64,000 nt of DNA, taken from the NCBI GenBank assembly GCA_951406725.2, contig OX597830.1:54746001-54810000 (forward strand), given 5' to 3'. Each line of letters starts with the position of its first letter. The first letter of the stretch is position 1. This DNA is from Octopus vulgaris (Eukaryota). Positions 2,043 to 60,980 of this stretch are shown here, piece after piece. The translations under genes were made by a program, and so were the position numbers. The notes under the pieces were generated by a model. It was not told the DNA's origin. It worked only from the letters and a program-made list of their open reading frames with translations, and made no database searches.

Positions 2043-2675
2043 CAGGGTCCTGTGAATAAATTGTCTAAATTACATAAAAGTGAAAATAACATTGACGTCT
2101 CATTTTAACAGACATATTTACCAAAATTACATAAAAATATCTTGAAATACTAAAGAGTAAATTTATTCAATAAAATCTCCATTGGCTTAAACCACGGCCT
2201 CCAGACGACTTCAGCATCTCCTTGTTTAAGTTGGTGAATGCTGCCATAATCTTGCCTTCAGTTCATCTTTGGTGTTACAAGGAGTTTTGTTGGTCTCTCG
2301 CTCAACTGCGCCCCACACATAATAATCAAGGGGGTTGCAGTCAGGGTGGGATGGGGGTGGGGTTAGGTGGCCAGTGTTAGGGGTGATGTGGTTGCAGAAA
2401 TTGTCTCACAGCCATGACCGGGTTCTCCTGCTTGTGGGGCATGGTACAGAGTCCTGATGCCAGATATAGGGTCTTCCAGCAGCCACCCTCTTGACCCAAG
2501 GCAGCACTACCTCCTCCAGGCATTTGATGTAGGCATCCGTGTTAAGTCTGAAGCCACGTGGGAGTCTGAGGCCATATGGGAAGATGAATGGAGGCATAAC
2601 GTTGCCCTCATAGTGATAACTCCAAACACTATGATGTTGACTGGATGTTTGATTTTTATCACTCTCGGTACATGT
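2043..2675 (-). mobile_element. Tc1/mariner-superfamily (DD37D-like) transposon fragment, one TIR
   Basis: TA+cagggtcctgtgaataaattgtc TIR; minus strand encodes LNTDAYIKCLEEVVLPWVKRVAAGRPYIWHQDSVPC...DCNPLDYYVWG; homologous to 59334-60052. Confidence 0.85.
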
Positions 2676-2676
2676 C

Positions 2677-2855
2677 CTCAGATTGTATCCGGTCTGCATG
2701 TCATTCAGCTTTGTGTGCTGGTAGTGCAGGGCTTGGAACTTCCCTGCATTAAACTGCATGTTGTTGTCCTCAGCCCACCTGTATATTGTATCCAACTCCC
2801 ATTGCAGACGTGCAATATTTCCAGGGTTTTGTATTGTCTGAAAGACTTATACAGC
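2677..2855 (-). mobile_element. CR1/L2-clade LINE reverse transcriptase fragment
   Basis: LQWELDTIYRWAEDNNMQFNAGKFQALHY matches the LQxDLxxxxxWxxxNxMxFNxxK RT C-terminal motif. Confidence 0.75.
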
Positions 2856-4539: not shown

Positions 4540-4975
4540 GCGAGAAGGCCAGAGTGATATGCAGTGATATATATTTGGGAGATCTTGGAGGGTTTAGCTC
4601 CCAATTTTAGAATTGACAGTTATACCAATCCTCAAACTGGATGGCACTGCATCATACCAAAGATCCCATCTTCCCCATCTAAAATAAGGACACAGTACTG
4701 CAATAGTCTGGGTTTCAAGGGCCCGCAATGGTTCAACATCATTCCAGGCAACCTTAGAGATCTACATGGTGTTGATGTGGAAGTTTTCAAGGAACATCTG
4801 AACAGGTTTCTTTCTGAGATGCCAGATGAACCCACATCATGTCAGGAGATGCAAAGAAGGGCAGCTCCGTCTGCGTCGATACTTCACCAAAAACAATACT
4901 GGAAGCAACACTGAGTAACTGAGTAACTTCAGGTGGTGCTCCAGCGTGACCTCAGCCCTGGGCTGAAACCAGTAG
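4540..4975 (+). mobile_element. CR1/L2-clade LINE 3' end
   Basis: IYIWEILEGLAPNF...NSLGFKGPQWFNIIPGNLRDL...VFKEHLNRFLSEMPDEP, typical ORF2 C-terminus, followed by a short 3' UTR. Confidence 0.8.
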
Positions 4976-7204: not shown

Positions 7205-8365
7205 GAGAAGACAAAAAGCACCTGCCGACTTTTGCTTCTCTAAAAACAAACACAAAACGAGGTATTAAACCTCTTACAGTTTTTACAATTTTTTCAGTAT
7301 TTTGGACTTCATAGTCCATTACAAATAATAACATAGTTCACAAAACTCAATTATCCTCCTCCCCGACCAGGCTGTATGCTACCCTTAGGCACTGCTCCAG
7401 CTCCAGGTCAGGGCCCCAGAATGCAAATCTGAACATGTCATTTGAGAAGGCGCCCTCACTCTGAACATAGCAACATCTGATATGACCTTCGTAGTCACCT
7501 GTGAAGGCCAATCCTCGTCCTCTGTCCAGGGCATGGGCTTCTCTCTCCAGCCATCCAGCTTCTCTACGAAGCTCTGTATTGCCCCTCCCTTCTGGAAGAA
7601 GATGACAAAATCATCTTTCCTCCATATGGGAGGAGCTGCTGTTTCCTCTGTCAGTGGCACACATCCCACCGACAAAGTTTCCGGGCATGCCAGCAGTTCA
7701 TCATCAACTGCGGGCAATGTCCCGTTCTTCTTTTTACATTTCTTCTTTTCCTTCACAATGAGAGGATGGAGTTCCTCTGTCATGTCTGGAAGTCCTTCCA
7801 TTCCTCCTGCCACCTCAGGAGCCATTGGTGGGCAACCATTGTTGCCCACCTTCTTTCTTTTTTTCCTTTTCTTTTTCGATGGGGTTGCCTCCCCCTCGAC
7901 TTCTTCCCTCTCTCCCTCCACCCCCAATAGGGGTTCAGGGGGTTCTTCTATTAACTGTTCCAGGACATTTGCTTGGTTCCAGTGGCAGTTTTTCTTTATG
8001 TGGCCCAATTCCAGGCACAGATGACACTTGGGGGGGTGTGTCCCTCAAGGATCACCAGGTACCTGGAACCAGCCATTGTTAGAAAATCTGACAAAGCCAG
8101 ATTATCGGCTGATTGGGTCCATAGGGTCAAAATTGCTTTTGACCCTACCCAATGAGCTGCAGGGAGAATTCTGACATTCAAGAGCCTGGCAGTGCTGCCA
8201 CCTAGACCCAGACAGATAGTGTCTTCTATCTATTTGGGCTCTATACTGGGTGGCAGCCCACACACCCAAGCTCTTGTCAGCCTCCTCCCTTCATAAGTGG
8301 GAAGAAACAAAATTTTCTCCCCTTCCAATGGTTGGCTTGTGAAATCCCAAGCCTCCACGGGGCTG
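7205..8365 (-). mobile_element. L1/Tx1-like ORF1 (gag-like zinc knuckle) relic
   Basis: Minus strand KCHLCLELGHIKKNC (CX2CX4HX4C) near 7984-8028, followed by Lys/Glu-rich low-complexity sequence; upstream frames broken by shifts and stops. Confidence 0.65.
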
Positions 8366-8460: not shown

Positions 8461-9420
8461 CTAAAAATAACCATTTACAGTGTTGTGTATGCCTGCTTCT
8501 TTTATATATTGGATTTTTTCACGGTACCCAGCCCTAGCTAGAGTAGCGTTATGATAAGTTCCATGCGATTCTAAAATTTTATTATTAGCAGATAATCTAG
8601 AGATTCTTGTAGAAATATTCTTAACTAGTCCCCGTATAATCGAGGGTGGATGGTTGGATGCTATGTTAATGTATTTATGAAATGGTTCAAATAATCCAGT
8701 ATCAAGACAGAAGGTAGCGTCAAGAAAATTCATTCTCCAATAATCTTTACCCATAGTCTTCCTATGCCTTTCTAACTGTACTTTACTACTTCTGTCCAGC
8801 AAAAATAAGGTGTCATCTCTATGTAAATCCCCGTTACTTCCAGAAAGAAAGACTGGATTAATGAAAGGATATATATTCCAACTCAGTCACTGGCTTGAGC
8901 AGAATCCTATGAGCCCATTGCTATATCAAATGCAGTCTCCTTATCTAATCTACTCCATAATCTACCATCAAAATCTATTAGAGTGGCTCATGCGGCAAGT
9001 ATAATAGCTATTTTACATTGGGACAAATTGGAATTTTTCATGCTAAAAATCAGGGCTTGATTAAGAATGATTGGGTTGATAGTGGCATAATAGCTCTCTA
9101 TATCTAGTTGCAAAAATTTACTATTCTTATTAATCTCTCGAAGCTTAAACTATCCAACCACCTCTTGGGTATCAGACCAGATGGCTAATCTAATTTTAGA
9201 CTTAAGGACGGGTATTACCGTATCAATGATTTTTTTTGACTAATAATGCCTATAATGGATTTAGGAGAAATCAATATGAGGGGTCAATGAGAAAGTTAGG
9301 TTTATGGTCCTAAAGTATAATCCAAGGTTTTCGAGGGATGTAGGATGCGGTTCTATCATCTATAGTTAGATCTCTGACAATTTGTAGCCCTGTATTGGTA
9401 ATTCTTTTTAATACATCATT
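8461..9420 (-). mobile_element. Penelope-like element reverse transcriptase relic
   Basis: NFLDATFCLDTGLFEPFHKYINIASNHPPSIIRGLVKNISTRISRLS matches the PLE RT FLD...SNHP region; MGSxDS and YxDD-like remnants upstream. Confidence 0.8.
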
Positions 9421-10319: not shown

Positions 10320-10984
10320 GTTGTGAGTTGGTGTGCATGTCTATATATATATATATACATACATATGTTTGTGTGTGTGTGTATATATGTGCGTGCGTGT
10401 GTGTGTTTTATTTTGGGAAAGAGACAGGTGGCTTGCAAGAAAATAAAAATTTCCAGGGAAGACTAACAGAGCACACACTCACACACACAGACATGGGAAT
10501 TGCAAACTATATTTTCTCTATAGACTAAGTGAAGCATGCATCTAACTACAATACTACCAGGCCGTTGGAGTTAAAAGGGGCACAGTCACAACAGCTGGTA
10601 GTGATGTCTGCCAGAGAAAATTAGATAAAAAAATATTCCTCTCCAACTTCCACTCTACATTTTGATCTTGGGGCTTCTTTTTCTCTGTTTTCTCTGGGTT
10701 TTAGAAGAACATCTCTTCACCTACCACCACCACCTTCTTCTTATCATAAATTATAATGTAACTTATCATTTTTTAAAGTTTTATTAAGGTGGGGAACTAA
10801 TAGTTTTTTTCCAAAAGATATTGTGATTAGACAGATCTATATAACATGCCTTGTGTCTCCAAGTAATCTTATTAGAGTGTTGAACAAAGTGCTTCAAGAT
10901 ATTTCTTCCAATATCCTGCCAAGGATTAGAATCGAAGGGCCTTAGAGTCAACCTAGCTAAAACCAAAGTCCTAATAAGTAGGAA

Positions 10985-11935
10985 GGTAGACAAGTCACAA
11001 ACGCCTTCAGGTAGATGGCCTTGCTCAATCTATAGAAAAGGTGTAGGTAGAAACTCTATAAGATGCACCAAGTGTAAGCTATGGACACATAAGAGGTGCA
11101 ACAACGTCAAAGGAAGGCTAACTAGGAAGATAGTTTTTGTATGTGGCAGATGCTCAGGAGCAATAAACACTGAAAATGCGCAGAGACCAACTTCCGCCAC
11201 ATTCCAGGGAGAAAAACTAGAAATAGTTGATAGCTTCCGTTACCTAGGTGACCAAGTCAGTAGCAGGGGTGGGTGTGTTGAAAGTGTAACTGCTAGAGTA
11301 AGAATAGCCTGGGCAAAGTTCAGAGAGCTCTTACCTCTGCTGGTGACAAAAGGCCTCTCGCTCAGAGTAAAAGGCAGACTGTATGATGCATGTGTACGAA
11401 CAGCCATGCTACATGGCAGTGAAACATGGGCCATGACTGCTGAGGATATGCGTAAGCTTGCAAGAAATGAAGCCAGTATGCTCCGATGGATGTGTAATGT
11501 CAGTGTTCATACCCGACAGAGTATAAGTACCTTGAGAGAAAAGTTGCACCTAAGAAGCATCAGTTGTAGTGTGCAAGAGAGACGTTTGCACTGGTGTGGT
11601 CATGTGGCGAGAATGAATGAAGATAGTTGTGTGAAAAACTGCCACACCCTAGTGGTTGAGGGAACCTGTGGAAGAGGTAGACCCAGGAAAACCTGGGACG
11701 AGGTGGTGAAGCATGACCTTCGAACTTTAGGTCTCACTGAGGAAATGACTAGAAACCAAGACCTTTGGAAGTATGCTGTGTGTGAGAAAACCCAGCAGGA
11801 CAAGTGAGGCCATAACCCATGGCCTCTACTTGGGATGTAGCCAGTCCACTTATGCATACCTTTTCTTCTTGGGACACAAAACTCTACTTGTGAAGACCTG
11901 TTGAGGCAAGTGAAAATCAAAAATAAAAATCGAAA
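10985..11935 (+). mobile_element. RTE-clade LINE 3' portion with Cys-rich (PHD-like) insert
   Basis: CTKCKLWTHKRC...FVCGRC then VDSFRYLGD...ARVRIAWAKFRELLPLL...KGRLYDACVRTAMLHGSETW...RRLHWCGHVARM...GRGRPRKTW, stop at 11807. Confidence 0.9.
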
Positions 11936-25841: not shown

Positions 25842-26942
25842 ATATATATATGGGGAGAATTCACAAAAAAACAAAAGACGAAGACAGGTGGTGTAGAAAA
25901 CAAACAGATGTATTAGTATAATGATCGGGAATTGAAAAAGTCTTTAACATTTCGAGCCTATGCTCTTCCACAGAAAGAAACACAGAAAGAAGCAAGGAGA
26001 GAAAAAAAAACATATATATATATCCTTTAGGTTCATTTACAGGAAACGTTTTTTCGTATGCATGCAAAAACTCTTATTTTATTATGCTGCCACCTAATGA
26101 TGGTCACTTGCAGTAGCTGTTTTATGGGTTTGTACCAAGCTGTACTGATATAATATGTATAAATCCATCCACCCATCACTGTCTATCTGTCAGCAGCGAG
26201 CTGGCAGAACCATTAGCACGCCAGGCGAAATGCGTAGCCGCATTTCGTCTGCCGTTACGTTGAGTTCACATTCCGCCAAGGTCGACTGTGCCTTTCATCC
26301 TTTCAGGGTCGACAAATTAAGTACCAGTTACGCACTGGGGTCTATGTAATTGACTTAATCCCTTTGTCTGTCCCCTTTATGTTTACCCCCTTGTGGGCAA
26401 TAAAGAAATATATCTGTCTTTGTCAATTCTTTTTGTTAAAATGTGGTTCAAAGAATGGTCTTAAGCTAACAAAGTAGAAATATATTTTCAAATATTTGCC
26501 TTTCATTATGTCCCAAACACCATCTAAATATACCAATATTTAGTTGGGTCTTTGAAACTTCCCTTTTGTTAAATGTTCCATAGAACCATCTTAACAAAAC
26601 ACAACTATATATTGGTATAATAAAATACCATGTTGATATACCAATATACATACATTTATTTTAAATTACATGTCAAAACCATTTTAATATCTCAATAGAT
26701 AAAAGGTGAAGAGCTGGCAGAATTGTTAGTAGCCCGGGCAAAATGCTGAGTGGTATTTTGTCCCTCTACATTTTGAGTTCAAATTCTGTCAAGGTTAATT
26801 TTGCCTTTCATCCTTTCAGAGTCAGTAAATAAAGTACCAGTGAAATTCTGGGGTTGATGTAATCGACTAGTCCCTTCCCACAAGACTTCAAGCCTTGTCC
26901 CTATAATAAAAAGGTTATTATTATTATTACTATTATTATTAC

Positions 26943-26973
<31 letters not shown>

Positions 26974-27006
26974 TCTTTTATTATTATTATTATTTCTTTT
27001 GTGCAG

Positions 27007-27215
27007 AAAACTGCAGACCTCATGGTATTCACATAGCCTTTGGTAACACAACACAGGACATAGTGATAATGTGGTCATCAGTGGCCAACTGTTCAAGCTC
27101 TGTGAAATACGGTGACACCATACAGAACAAGAAGTACAAAGCGGAACCAACTACAGTGTTTTTTAATCTTACCAACTCACTGGCAAGACATTACTACTAC
27201 CATGCTGTACTAAAA
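27007..27215 (+). CDS. ACP7: ACP7-like exon A: PAP N-terminal FN3-like domain
   Basis: tttcttttgtgcag acceptor; NCRPHGIHIAFGNTTQDIVIMWSSVANCSSSVKYG...RHYYYHAVLK resembles the PAP PxxxHxxxG...W...VxYG...YxHxxxL pattern; donor gtgagt at 27216. Starts in phase 1, so an upstream exon is required. Confidence 0.88.
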
Positions 27216-27239
27216 GTGAGTTCTCCAAATCACCAATCC

Positions 27240-28170
27240 CACCATCGTGGTCGTTATTGTTATCATCATTATTATTATTGCTGTTGTTTGCATCATTGTG
27301 TCATCAGCATCATTATCCTTATCCTTGTTGTCTTCCTCATAATTGTTGTTACTTCGTTTATAGATGTCATCGTTATCATCACCATTGCCATCGACATCAT
27401 TGTCCATCTCACCATCATCATCATCATTAACATATTCAAGTTATCGTCATCACTGTCATTGCTATTATCATTGTCATCAGTCATTGTCCTTGTTACCACC
27501 GTTGTCATTATCGTTATCATTATTAGCATCATTGATATCATTATTGTTATCATTATTGTTATCATCATTATTATCAATATTGTTATCGTCATTGTTATCA
27601 TTTTTATCATTGTTGTTATCGTTATCATCATTGATATCATTATTGTTATCATTATTATCATCATTGATATGACTATTGTTAACATTATTGTTATCATCAT
27701 TATTATCATTATTGTTATCATCATTGTCATCGTTGTTATCATCATTGTTATCATTATTATTATCATCATTGATATCATTATTGTTATCGTCTTTGTTATC
27801 ATCATTGTTATCATTATTGTTATCATCATTGTTATCATTATTGTTATCATTGTTATCATCATTGTTATCATCATTGTTGTTATCATTATTGCCTCCGTCA
27901 GTATTGTTAGTAGTTATTATTGTCATTGCAATCAACACTATCATCATCTCTAACATTGCTATTATCGTCAGTGTCATCATTAGCATAATTATCATCATTG
28001 TTGTGTCATCATTGTCACTGTTGCCATCGTTGTCATCATCATATCATCATTGTTATTGACATTATATTCAGCATGACTATCACTATCCTCTTCTTTATTA
28101 TTATCATCATTATTATCATCATCATCATCATCATCAGCGTCGCCGTCGTCGTCGTCATCGTCATCGTCCA
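27240..28170. repeat. Degenerate (ATC/ATT/GTT)n trinucleotide low-complexity tract in intron
   Basis: About 930 bp of codon-periodic repeat just after exon A's donor. Confidence 0.9.
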
Positions 28171-29286: not shown

Positions 29287-29376
29287 GACCTCAAACCAAA
29301 TACAACATACTATTACAGTATAGTCAACAGTAAAATGGTGACTCCTGCCTACTTTAAGACACCACCAAAGGGCAAT
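29287..29376 (+). CDS. ACP7: ACP7-like exon B
   Basis: ttccag acceptor; DLKPNTTYYYSIVNSKMVTPAYFKTPPKGN (FN3 LxPxTxYxY...FxT motif); donor gtaagt; 90 nt, phase 0/0. Absent from the ORF track. Confidence 0.9.
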
Positions 29377-31159: not shown

Positions 31160-31309
31160 GAATGGTCCCCTTCGTTTGTCCTCTTTGGTGATCTTGGAGT
31201 GGAATCCCGCATTCATCCAACTCTAACCAATGAAGCATTGTCTGGCAAATATTCTGCCTTCTTCCATATTGGAGATTTTGCTTACAACTTCGAAGACGAT
31301 GGTGGACAG
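31160..31309 (+). CDS. ACP7: ACP7-like exon C: DxG and GDxxY metal ligands
   Basis: tttcaacag acceptor; EWSPSFVLFGDLGVESRIHPTLTNEALSGKYSAFFHIGDFAYNFEDDGGQ; donor gtaatt; 150 nt. Confidence 0.95.
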
Positions 31310-32321: not shown

Positions 32322-32397
32322 AATGGCGATGAGTTTATGGATATCATACAAGACTATGCAAAATATGTGCCTTACATGACAGCTCCAGGAAACCATG
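32322..32397 (+). CDS. ACP7: ACP7-like exon D: GNH(E) motif
   Basis: tttcatcacag acceptor; NGDEFMDIIQDYAKYVPYMTAPGNH + g; donor gtaaga; ends in phase 1. Confidence 0.95.
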
Positions 32398-37214: not shown

Positions 37215-37335
37215 AGATTGACAATGAAACATTCGCTCAATATCGGTACCGTTTTTCCATGCCTGGAACCAGTTGGCCAATGAAGTTGAATAAATTGTGG
37301 TACAGTTTTGATATTGGACCAGTACATTTCATCAG
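37215..37335 (+). CDS. ACP7: ACP7-like exon E
   Basis: ttgtttgcag acceptor; (E)IDNETFAQYRYRFSMPGTSWPMKLNKLWYSFDIGPVHFI(S); donor gtttga. Phase 1/2 completes GNHE and fits the next exon. Confidence 0.93.
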
Positions 37336-39748: not shown

Positions 39749-40254
39749 GGCATGGATGATGCCAGAATAGATAAAGAACTGGAGCGGGTAAGCCATTTCA
39801 TATTTCATTCTTTCATTATATTCATATTTCATATGTCACGTTCTATGTACCCCACATTTTGTCTGTCCCTGTGGTGTCCCCTCTTTTTTTCTCAGGCTTT
39901 ATGCCTATAATAAAGAAAAATAGATAAAGAACTGGACAAAATATATTTTTGTTTGTTTGCTTTGTACATATTCTTCCTGTCACTTAGAATACAAAAATAA
40001 AAACATTGAATATGGAATTAAATTAATGTTTTTTCCTTTCCTTCCAGTTATTCTACAGAAGTATTCTTCATAAAAGACACCAGATATATTGCAGCTCAGT
40101 CTGCTTGGCTAATAGAAGACTTAGACAAAGCAAATAAACAGAGAAAAGACCATCCTTGGATTATAGCTGTTGGTCATCGACCAATGTATTGTTCCAACAG
40201 CAATGATGATGATTGTACTTTGGAAAACTCCGAAGTTAAAGTGCAGTAAAGATC

Positions 40255-45851: not shown

Positions 45852-46045
45852 CTTGGAGAACATATTCTACATTGCTGGTGTTGATGTGATTTTTGAAGCT
45901 CACGAACATTCTTATGAACGTCTGTATCCTGTTTACGACGGTAAAGTGGTCAGTGAGAACTACACAGATGCTGCTGCACCAATCCATATTATAACAGGGG
46001 CTGCTGGCAATAAATGGGGCTCAGATCCCATGGATAGGGATGCAG
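45852..46045 (+). CDS. ACP7: ACP7-like exon G: AHEH motif
   Basis: ttttttcag acceptor; LENIFYIAGVDVIFEAHEHSYERLYPVYDGKVVSENYTDAAAPIHIITGAAGNKWGSDPMDRDA + g; donor gtgagc; ends in phase 1. Confidence 0.95.
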
Positions 46046-50958: not shown

Positions 50959-50997
50959 TTAATGCCACACATGAAGAATTTCACCAGAACAATACTG
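50959..50997 (+). CDS. Putative microexon 1 (VNATHEEFHQNNT), GC donor
   Basis: tttttgttgtttttcag acceptor, 39 nt, phase 1/1, followed by g|gcaagt; sequons NAT and NNT. Confidence 0.6.
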
Positions 50998-52190: not shown

Positions 52191-52229
52191 TTAATGTAAC
52201 TAACCAAGAATTACTCCACAACCATACTG
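52191..52229 (+). CDS. Putative microexon 2 (VNVTNQELLHNHT), GC donor
   Basis: Same acceptor context as microexon 1, 39 nt, phase 1/1, g|gcaagt; sequons NVT and NHT. Confidence 0.6.
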
Positions 52230-53573: not shown

Positions 53574-53615
53574 TTGATAATAATTCCACATTTGAGGAAA
53601 ATTTCAATAACACGG
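53574..53615 (+). CDS. Putative microexon 3 (VDNNSTFEENFNNT), GC donor
   Basis: Long pyrimidine tract + cag, 42 nt, phase 1/1, g|gcaagt; sequons NNS/NST and NNT. Confidence 0.6.
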
Positions 53616-59333: not shown

Positions 59334-60052
59334 CAGGGTGCAATGAGTAAATTATTGCCGTTTTATATATTTAATTTCATGCGTGCACATTGTTTGTTTT
59401 TGAGTTTGTTGACTACACAGTATAGTAGGGTCAGTTGGGCTCCATCTATGAGAAAAACAGCATCATAGTGTTTGGAGTGATCACTAGTGATGGCATCATT
59501 ATGCCTCCAAACATCTTACCACACGGCCTCGGACTCAACATGGAGGCCTGCATCAAGTACCTGGAGGAGGTAGTGCTGCCCTGGGTCAAGAGGGTGTCTG
59601 TTGGAAGACCCTATGTCTGGCATCCGGACTCTGCACCATGCCACATAAGCAAGAGAATCCTGTCATGACCATCAGACAATTTCTGGAACCACATCACCCC
59701 TAACATCTGGCCACCTAACTCCCTAGACTGCAACCCTCTTGATTATTATGTGTGGGGTGCATCCGAGTGAGTGACCAACAAAACTCCTTGTAATACCAAC
59801 GATCAACTGAAGGCAAGGATTATGGCAGCATTCACCAACTTAAACAAGGAAACCATTCAGAAGAGTTACAGGAGATTCCAAAGTTGTCTGGAGGCCATGG
59901 TTGAAGCCAATGGCAATTTTATTGAATAAATTTACTCTTTAGTATTTCAAGATATTTTCATGTAATTTTGGTAAATATTTCTGTTAAAATGAGATGTTAG
60001 TGTTATTTTCCTTTTTGCGTAATTTAGATGACAGTTTATTCACTGTACCCTG
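59334..60052 (+). mobile_element. Internally deleted DD37D (maT-type) Tc1/mariner element with both TIRs
   Basis: TA|cagggtgcaatgagtaaatt ... tttattcactgtaccctg|TA; DSAPCH...WPPNSLDCNPLDY with 37 residues between the last two catalytic Asp; internal stops; inserted in a family A SINE. Confidence 0.88.
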
Positions 60053-60411: not shown

Positions 60412-60980
60412 GTAATTGGACAGCATTCCGCCAGAGTGGATTCTCGTTGGACAGCTATGGAAGGTTTACAGTCTACAACTGTACTCACTTGTTCTGGGAA
60501 CAAGTACAAGATGGTAAAGATTTGGACAGCATTTGGATTGTGAAAGGAGAACATACGAAAAACAATGTCAGTAAAGAACTCCAGAAGAAAATCATAAAAA
60601 ATGTGATGGATCAACTTGCAACAACCACGCCAAAAGCAACAACACCACCAATAGCAGTAGGAACACACGTAAAAGCTAATGGATCTCAGCATTCGGTTCT
60701 ATCCTCACCGTTCCTGAAAGGCAAAAGCAGTCAGACATTGATCATCAGTCTGTCTGCTGTTGGAGGATGTATTTTAATCCTCATAACGGTCTGTATGGTT
60801 ATCAAGAGCAACAGGAATAAATCATCGCCGGTTAGTTCTTGGAATGATGGGGGTTTTGTGAAGAGGAGTTTTTATCGTAACATAAAGAATTTAGAGAATG
60901 ACATTATGTCAGAAGAACTGGACATGCATGATGGCTCGTTACCAACTTCGAAATTGCTATCTGAAAATATGGACATCTAA
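60412..60980 (+). CDS. ACP7: ACP7-like terminal exon: PAP C-domain, Thr-rich stalk, transmembrane helix, cytosolic tail
   Basis: Strong pyrimidine tract + ttgcag; (G)NWTAFRQSGFSLDSYGRFTVYNCTHLFWEQVQDGKDLDSIWIVK matches the PAP C-terminal W.A.R...YG...V.N.THL..EQ...D pattern; hydrophobic LIISLSAVGGCILILITVCMVI; stop TAA 60978-60980. Confidence 0.92.

Follow-up and report, generated by a model that had tools for sequence, protein, structure and literature searches.

The gene considered here poses a question about where a purple acid phosphatase (PAP) may be held in a mollusc cell. In the window, a 64,000-nucleotide stretch of Octopus vulgaris contig OX597830.1, the reading frame of a PAP gene does not stop at the end of the catalytic domain, and translation of 60546-60980 gives a further 144 residues and a stop directly after DSIWIVK. 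Purple acid phosphatases of animals are generally regarded as soluble enzymes. The first-pass annotation of this locus had read the extension as a membrane anchor with a Thr/Pro stalk and a tyrosine motif, YRNI, which might have converged on the sorting of the lysosomal acid phosphatase ACP2. Whether the extension belongs to the gene, whether it is particular to the octopus and to which compartment it would direct the enzyme are the points considered here.

The catalytic part was characterized from its domains, ligands and predicted structure. Three Pfam families, PF16656, PF00149 and PF14008 (N-terminal PAP, metallophosphoesterase and C-terminal PAP), were all matched above cut-off, and the octopus protein gave no Pfam match to a histidine phosphatase domain. 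The seven metal ligands D159, D187, Y190, N222, H307, H347 and H349 are intact in the motifs DxG, GDxxY, GNH[ED], VxxH and xHxH, the last of which reads AHEH, the same as in deer ACP7. The AlphaFold2 model, based on a 59-sequence alignment (mean pLDDT 81.6), runs from an N-terminal helix (residues 11-34) through the PAP core and a disordered microexon loop (395-419) to the C-terminal extension; it has the PAP fold, with kidney bean PAP as the best Foldseek match (E 3e-28). Plant high-molecular-weight PAPs were the first matches in both the sequence and the fold searches. In the ESM Atlas, the whole protein fell among generic PAP clusters at 0.88-0.90, which was uninformative, and residues 440-609 returned no usable match. 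By its domains, ligands and predicted fold, the octopus protein is classed as an ACP7-like high-molecular-weight purple acid phosphatase.

Eleven exons were placed on the plus strand between 27007 and 60980, with an AG acceptor at every one (Table 1). The preceding 48 residues, which contain the signal-peptide-like segment, could not be located: seven 12-residue probes over 1-27100 of the window gave background scores only. Their absence from 1-27006 implies either that the first exon has diverged or that the first intron exceeds 27 kb. The version of the window gene that includes microexons 1 and 2 differs at 3 of 560 residues (positions 248, 417 and 552) from the Octopus sinensis protein annotated as 'acid phosphatase type 7 isoform X3' (P0002, 609 aa), so few that the DNA would belong to O. 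sinensis or a very close species. The last exon is 99% identical to this reference and 93% identical to O. bimaculoides. Two O. bimaculoides models, P0003 and P0004, differ from each other by the three microexons, and both are without the 76-nt GNH exon and the N-terminus, which are probably annotation gaps. As well, reading on from the first PAP exon into the trinucleotide-repeat intron that follows yields a spurious 347-residue ORF on the plus strand (26910-27953), which has a long poly-Ile/Val stretch and could mislead gene finders. Six intronic ORFs, at 10884-11807 (+), 2406-2846 (-), 4558-4914 (+), 7385-8044 (-), 8461-8886 (-) and 59429-59920 (+), are presumably retroelement or Tc1/mariner-type transposon debris, judging from their resemblance by eye. 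A Pfam scan of the six gave a sub-threshold PHD match for 10884-11807 only and none for the others, the last being scanned over 59429-59665.

Table 1. Exons and sequence features of the octopus PAP gene, in positions of the window.
Feature	Position	Strand	Description
First exon found in the window	27007..27215	+	N-terminal PAP domain
Coding exon	29287..29376	+	N-terminal PAP domain
Coding exon	31160..31309	+	Ligand motifs GDLG (D159) and GDFAY (D187, Y190)
Coding exon	32322..32397	+	GNH(E) (N222)
Coding exon	37215..37335	+	Catalytic domain
Coding exon	40048..40245	+	VGHR (H307)
Coding exon	45852..46045	+	AHEHSY (H347, H349)
Microexon 1	50959..50997	+	39 nt, symmetric phase 1, GC donor, 2 N-glycosylation sequons
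Microexon 2	52191..52229	+	39 nt, symmetric phase 1, GC donor, 2 sequons
Microexon 3	53574..53615	+	42 nt, symmetric phase 1, GC donor, 3 sequons
Last exon, whole	60412..60980	+	Catalytic-domain end, spacer, 22-residue helix, basic stop, 58-residue tail
Last exon, 5' part	60412..60545	+	Final beta-strands of the C-terminal catalytic domain (PF14008), ending in DSIWIVK
Predicted helix after the catalytic domain	60573..60626	+	Residues 475-492, pLDDT about 84 (AlphaFold2)
Luminal spacer (predicted)	60618..60737	+	Thr/Pro-rich, then disordered
Single transmembrane helix (predicted)	60738..60803	+	22 residues, LIISLSAVGGCILILITVCMVI
Basic stop-transfer segment	60804..60821	+	KSNRNK
Trp564	60840..60842	+	Invariant in the 18-tail alignment; RRW in most relatives
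FVKRSFYRNI	60855..60884	+	Octopus form of the family block YG[KR]KFY; YRNI at 60873-60884
Acidic patch	60894..60932	+	Counterpart of the family DFE[IV]D..DG
KLL dileucine	60951..60959	+	6 residues from the C-terminus
Stop codon	60978..60980	+	TAA

The last exon holds the four last beta-strands of the catalytic domain together with the entire extension. Since both share one exon, exon skipping would break the enzyme, and the anchor is an integral part of the last coding exon. No Pfam family was matched by the 144-residue extension. The DSIWIVK end, ATTTPKATTPP (60618-60650), the helix, KSNRNK, YRNI and KLL all lie where the first-pass annotation had placed them. Its Thr/Pro stalk survives in part: a spacer is present, its first part is modelled as a confident helix (residues 475-492), and disorder is limited to about residues 501-525. 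Identity over spacer residues 493-529 is 5-8% outside Octopus.

The hydrophobic segment that follows reaches a Kyte-Doolittle 19-residue mean of 2.62, which is beyond chance, as 3 of 10,000 shuffled versions of the extension attain it. AlphaFold2 models a helix at residues 526-555, with block pLDDT 85-93 over residues 531-550, and the tail beyond it is disordered. In the O. sinensis reference, two hydrophobic peaks only exceed 1.2, at residues 21 (1.88) and 530. The positive-inside bias is weak in Octopus, with 3 basic residues after the helix versus 2 before it; the orthologues are strongly basic there, and their tails give weak sub-threshold matches to TM-juxtamembrane Pfam models. A GPI anchor was ruled out by the 58 hydrophilic residues after the helix. 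Hydrophobicity and the AlphaFold2 model, with the signal-peptide-like N-terminus taken from the O. sinensis reference, make a type I topology very probable. The type I membrane PAP originally proposed, which combines this single predicted helix with intact ligands, is supported.

The extension is not an octopus peculiarity. A full-length search returned 969 relatives, and the best 120 of these, ranked by likeness to the octopus protein, were examined; 82 of the 120 rows were analysed (80 named and 2 close relatives), the 38 left out being unlabelled records and one redundant isoform. An anchor was scored as present at a C-terminal helix score of 2.0 or more. Among these best 120 of 969, it occurs in 48 of the 53 named mollusc homologues, from 31 genera of snails, clams and cephalopods, and in 1 of the 27 named non-molluscs, the nemertean Tubulanus; because ranking by likeness to the octopus protein favours anchored forms, such proportions overstate the prevalence of the anchor among all ACP7-like genes. 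Within the 27 named non-molluscs, it was absent in the sponge, cnidarian, echinoderm, hemichordate, amphioxus, bryozoan, arthropod, amoebozoan and deer records. With 48 of 53 named mollusc homologues anchored in this set, the novelty that had been supposed at the octopus level falls away. The Tubulanus protein (P0108) ends in a short tail of unrelated sequence that includes YEPL, and two of its ligands are replaced (Y to F, N to D).

A tree of the catalytic cores only (65 rows, LG+G4, quick search, SH-aLRT supports) places the 44 anchored rows on one side of a branch with an SH-aLRT of 85 (not starred), and 0 of 500 label shuffles came out as low. Deer ACP7 falls together with copies from insects, copepods and Pomacea (SH-aLRT 99, starred), apart from the octopus protein; the two are 39-48% identical, the deer record being partial and internally duplicated. 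This placement, for which a single partial deer record is the basis, makes the octopus gene a paralogue and not an orthologue of mammalian ACP7, and the comparison with mammalian ACP7 made in the first-pass annotation had set paralogues side by side. The anchor was probably gained once in lophotrochozoans, which is the simplest reading of the tree. These comparisons place the octopus gene in a subfamily of anchored ACP7-like PAPs that is lophotrochozoan and found mainly in molluscs, and the anchored PAP is an old mollusc-wide design, not an octopus invention. No description of an anchored animal ACP7-like PAP subfamily was found in the open literature, subscription journals being mostly outside the coverage; the subfamily is apparently undescribed, and its member proteins are already in RefSeq and UniProt under the generic ACP7 name.

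In addition, a second mollusc anchored group was noticed (P0047, P0048, P0050, P0072, P0078 and P0094), with a short luminal spacer and a conserved Cys pattern, C...C.CP.PF. Several of its members have Cys-rich juxtamembrane tails, which are possibly palmitoylated, and a few have a canonical [DE]xxxL[LI].

Compared with the anchor, the glycosylation of the octopus protein has a much narrower distribution. Microexons 1 and 2 are duplicates of each other, flanking intron included, and the donor of each of the three microexons is the non-canonical gcaagt. All eight microexon combinations preserve the frame, and they raise the luminal sequons of the window-encoded part from 10 to 17. In the aligned homologues, the surface loop that the microexons lengthen, about 15 residues without them, has 41-55 residues in Octopus and one close relative and 13-19 residues in nearly all others, a few incomplete models being shorter. 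A second close relative, with an almost identical tail, has a short loop, which is consistent with optional microexon inclusion. Sequons number 14-17 in Octopus and 16 in the nearest relative, against medians of 6 in the 33 tail orthologues and 4 in unanchored forms. Judged from these counts, the glycan load is a cephalopod-type add-on. Because the high sequon count is confined to Octopus and one close relative, it says little about the compartment of the family, and the suggestion that dense luminal glycans fit a lysosomal setting loses its force.

The cytoplasmic tail, which has 55-60 residues in the subfamily, is well conserved by comparison with the spacer, with identities of 60% vs 5% to the nearest relative and 27% vs 8% to other orthologues; in O. 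bimaculoides tail identity is 93%. A profile of 18 tails matched 61 proteins, all at E <1e-18, and every species-labelled one is a mollusc PAP. Searched against 1.84 billion representatives, the tail profile gave 34 matches. All 28 of these with more than 28 upstream residues match PAP upstream, the other 6 having at most 28, and a tail borrowed from another family was rejected. Within the octopus group the tail consensus reads RRW..., YG[KR]KFY, DFE[IV]D..DG and T.KLL. Short motifs of this kind need comparative support, since shuffles of the octopus tail alone produce YxxΦ in 25% and LL/LI in 49% of cases. Such support was obtained for the dileucine: all 33 named orthologues have an L[LIV] among their final 14 residues, against 2.4 expected from shuffles, the rows being related and not independent. 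A canonical dileucine, [DE]xxxL[LI] or DxxLL, was found in 0 of the 27 tails tested. By these comparisons, the best-conserved part of the tail is the dileucine/acidic block and not the tyrosine motif. A C-terminal PDZ-type ending (MDI) was also considered and rejected, as the termini vary among orthologues.

With these features, we lean, by a modest degree, towards an ACP7-like type I PAP that cycles between the plasma membrane and endosomes or lysosomes by means of the dileucine/acidic/aromatic block of its tail. A signal peptide would mediate entry into the ER, and the product would be a glycoprotein of type I membrane topology, its catalytic domain exposed to the cell exterior or to the lumen of endosomes or lysosomes, with putative phosphomonoester hydrolysis at acid pH. 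Less firmly, the YG[KR]KFY block, the acidic DFE patch and the near-terminal dileucine might act as a composite sorting signal, and this signal could drive the enzyme from the plasma membrane to the endosomal/lysosomal system and back. The combination of an aromatic block, an acidic patch and a terminal dileucine is reminiscent of endosomal sorting tails, and endolysosomal trafficking through the better-conserved dileucine/acidic block is possible. As indirect support, the symbiont-digesting bacteriocytes of mussel and snail gills express a gene labelled acp7, which may or may not be the anchored paralogue, together with cathepsins, prosaposin and acp2 (10.1101/2023.08.18.553804, PMC13401447, 10.1101/2025.05.21.655246).

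A resident plasma-membrane ecto-phosphatase is fairly unlikely but carries real weight. Its tail would serve ER export, polarised (e.g., basolateral) delivery or scaffold binding, and the ectodomain might be shed into mucus by cleavage of the spacer, whose disordered portion of about 25 residues is available as a cleavage site. The non-canonical form of the dileucine (0/27) and a YRNI without lysosomal features, as detailed below, would both suit a surface enzyme. The aromatic, acidic and terminal-dileucine set, with its likeness to endosomal sorting tails, speaks against it, as does the co-expression of mollusc 'acp7' with lysosomal genes. A purple acid phosphatase, which may or may not be the product of this gene, is listed in O. 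vulgaris skin mucus in PMC11431876; this would fit a surface or shed enzyme too, but the same list also has many cytosolic proteins.

The relation between the tail and catalysis is seen best in copies that have lost metal ligands and kept the tail. These are 9 heterobranch gastropod proteins (P0054, P0106, P0129, P0132, P0137, P0139, P0140, P0143 and P0147), the Mytilus galloprovincialis (P0055) and Lottia (P0092) copies and four other records, and they are likely pseudo-phosphatases. The Lottia record is compositionally atypical and may be a poor gene model, and an apparent ligand change in Haliotis rubra was treated as a gene-model gap (alignment gap). The tails of the 9 heterobranch copies are more alike (identity 0.80) than their cores (0.62), whereas 6 ligand-intact heterobranch paralogues have a core identity of 0.68, a tail identity of 0.25 and no remaining tail motifs. 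On the tree, ligand loss takes 3 changes, at least 2 of them forced by starred branches, a count that is provisional in view of long branches. This pattern suggests that catalysis can be separated from a further function of the tail, and perhaps also of the ectodomain, which would then be a binding module.

Taken further, the same copies would fit a conserved job that is non-catalytic, as a receptor, ligand carrier or membrane scaffold, with phosphatase activity dispensable or secondary. A precedent is TgGAP50, a type I protein of PAP fold with its ligands mostly lost and an essential conserved tail, according to PMC2172186. Nevertheless, the full set of seven ligands is present in the octopus copy and in most bivalve and caenogastropod orthologues, a mere sorting address would equally predict a conserved tail, and the Lottia copy is open to the doubt given above; we regard a purely non-catalytic role as improbable. 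A broader scheme, which we offer tentatively and consider unlikely, is a mollusc-wide family of cycling type I proteins with PAP ectodomains, in which the RRW/YG[KR]KFY/DFE/KLL tail would be a sorting or signalling module, enzyme-to-receptor splits would have occurred repeatedly, and cephalopods would retain both functions and add spliced glycan microexons. If this were true, an active enzyme with a degenerate tail would stand against a metal-free pseudo-phosphatase with the tail, and cephalopods would unite both in one protein and tune it through alternative splicing of the glycan microexons in a surface loop.

A lysosomal YxxΦ signal in YRNI, acquired in convergence with ACP2 as originally proposed, together with a glycan-rich loop that protects the enzyme in lysosomes, is very doubtful. 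Of 27 relatives, 24 retain the YRNI Tyr at the aligned column and 11 have a hydrophobic Y+3 there, and the pteriomorph bivalves without Φ at that column (oysters, scallops and mussels) have YxxV three to four residues downstream. YxxΦ follows the Trp in 18 of the 33 orthologues and any YxxΦ is found in 21 of 33 vs 12.5 expected, these rows again being related and not independent. Set against this retention, the motif after the Trp is missing in nearly all gastropod orthologues, its chance occurrence in the octopus tail is the 25% noted above, and heavy glycosylation is limited to Octopus and one close relative. The octopus Tyr is 24 residues from the membrane and is preceded by Phe, not Gly; its X residues are basic or polar, none acidic. 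As given in the review PMC4584282, endocytic YxxΦ signals lie 10-40 residues from the membrane, and lysosomal ones lie 6-8 residues from it, often with a preceding Gly and acidic X residues. By these criteria YRNI fits the endocytic signals in position, and it departs from the lysosomal ones in position, preceding residue and X residues. Since YRNI does not show the features typical of lysosomal tyrosine signals, there is no support for convergence on ACP2 sorting; YRNI can at most add a putative endocytic AP-2-type signal, in cephalopods and bivalves. Finally, the chance that the anchor is an artefact of last-exon read-through or annotation error and that the real protein is soluble is negligible: an internal GT at 60566 agrees with the donor consensus at 7 of 9 positions, but the tail lies in the same exon as the catalytic strands, homologous tails occur in 31 mollusc genera and are nearly unchanged in O. 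bimaculoides, and a 617-residue relative encoded on contigs of at most 2,667 bases implies a spliced transcript.

The anchored subfamily bears on how mollusc acid phosphatases are read. Mollusc transcriptome papers, in their accessible parts, label such genes 'ACP7' and assign a lysosomal role by name alone, and the accessible part of PMC7200681 describes mollusc acid phosphatases as poorly characterised and gives no topology. Many mollusc 'ACP7' records appear to form a separate membrane-anchored paralogue group, some of them likely catalytically dead, and this split alters the reading of expression results on symbiont digestion, shell remodelling and mucus defence. As well, the tail of the mollusc anchored PAPs is a directly testable candidate sorting tail.

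Among known systems, the octopus protein is most like ACP7 (PAPL) and the plant-like high-molecular-weight PAPs, with which it shares the three Pfam domains, the seven ligands and the kidney bean PAP fold; unlike them, it has a C-terminal anchor and a 58-residue tail. ACP2, the lysosomal acid phosphatase (LAP), is a histidine phosphatase whose fold is unrelated to PAP, and its short tail carries a Gly-preceded Tyr motif near the membrane. Like ACP2, the octopus protein is, by its predicted topology, an acid phosphatase anchored in type I orientation with the catalytic domain in the lumen; it differs in that its Tyr lies mid-tail and its conserved feature is the dileucine/acidic block. The parallel with ACP2 is architectural, not motif-level. 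LAP has been reported to travel via the cell surface, with its luminal domain released in lysosomes (PMC10916873).

The Arabidopsis proteins AtPAP2 and AtPAP9 are PAPs with a C-terminal hydrophobic anchor as well, as stated in PMC8303434. They are tail-anchored on chloroplast and mitochondrial outer membranes and are involved in protein import, whereas the octopus protein has a predicted secretory-pathway layout and a long conserved tail. Apicomplexan GAP50 is a type I protein with a PAP-fold luminal domain, a cleaved signal peptide, N-glycans and a conserved essential tail, its ligands being mostly lost (PMC2172186). The octopus protein resembles it in combining a PAP-fold ectodomain with a conserved tail (Foldseek match 3tgh, E 3.5e-9). 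However, the GAP50 tail has six residues and binds the glideosome, and the structural match is much weaker than that to plant PAPs; GAP50 and the mollusc anchored PAPs would appear to be of independent origin.
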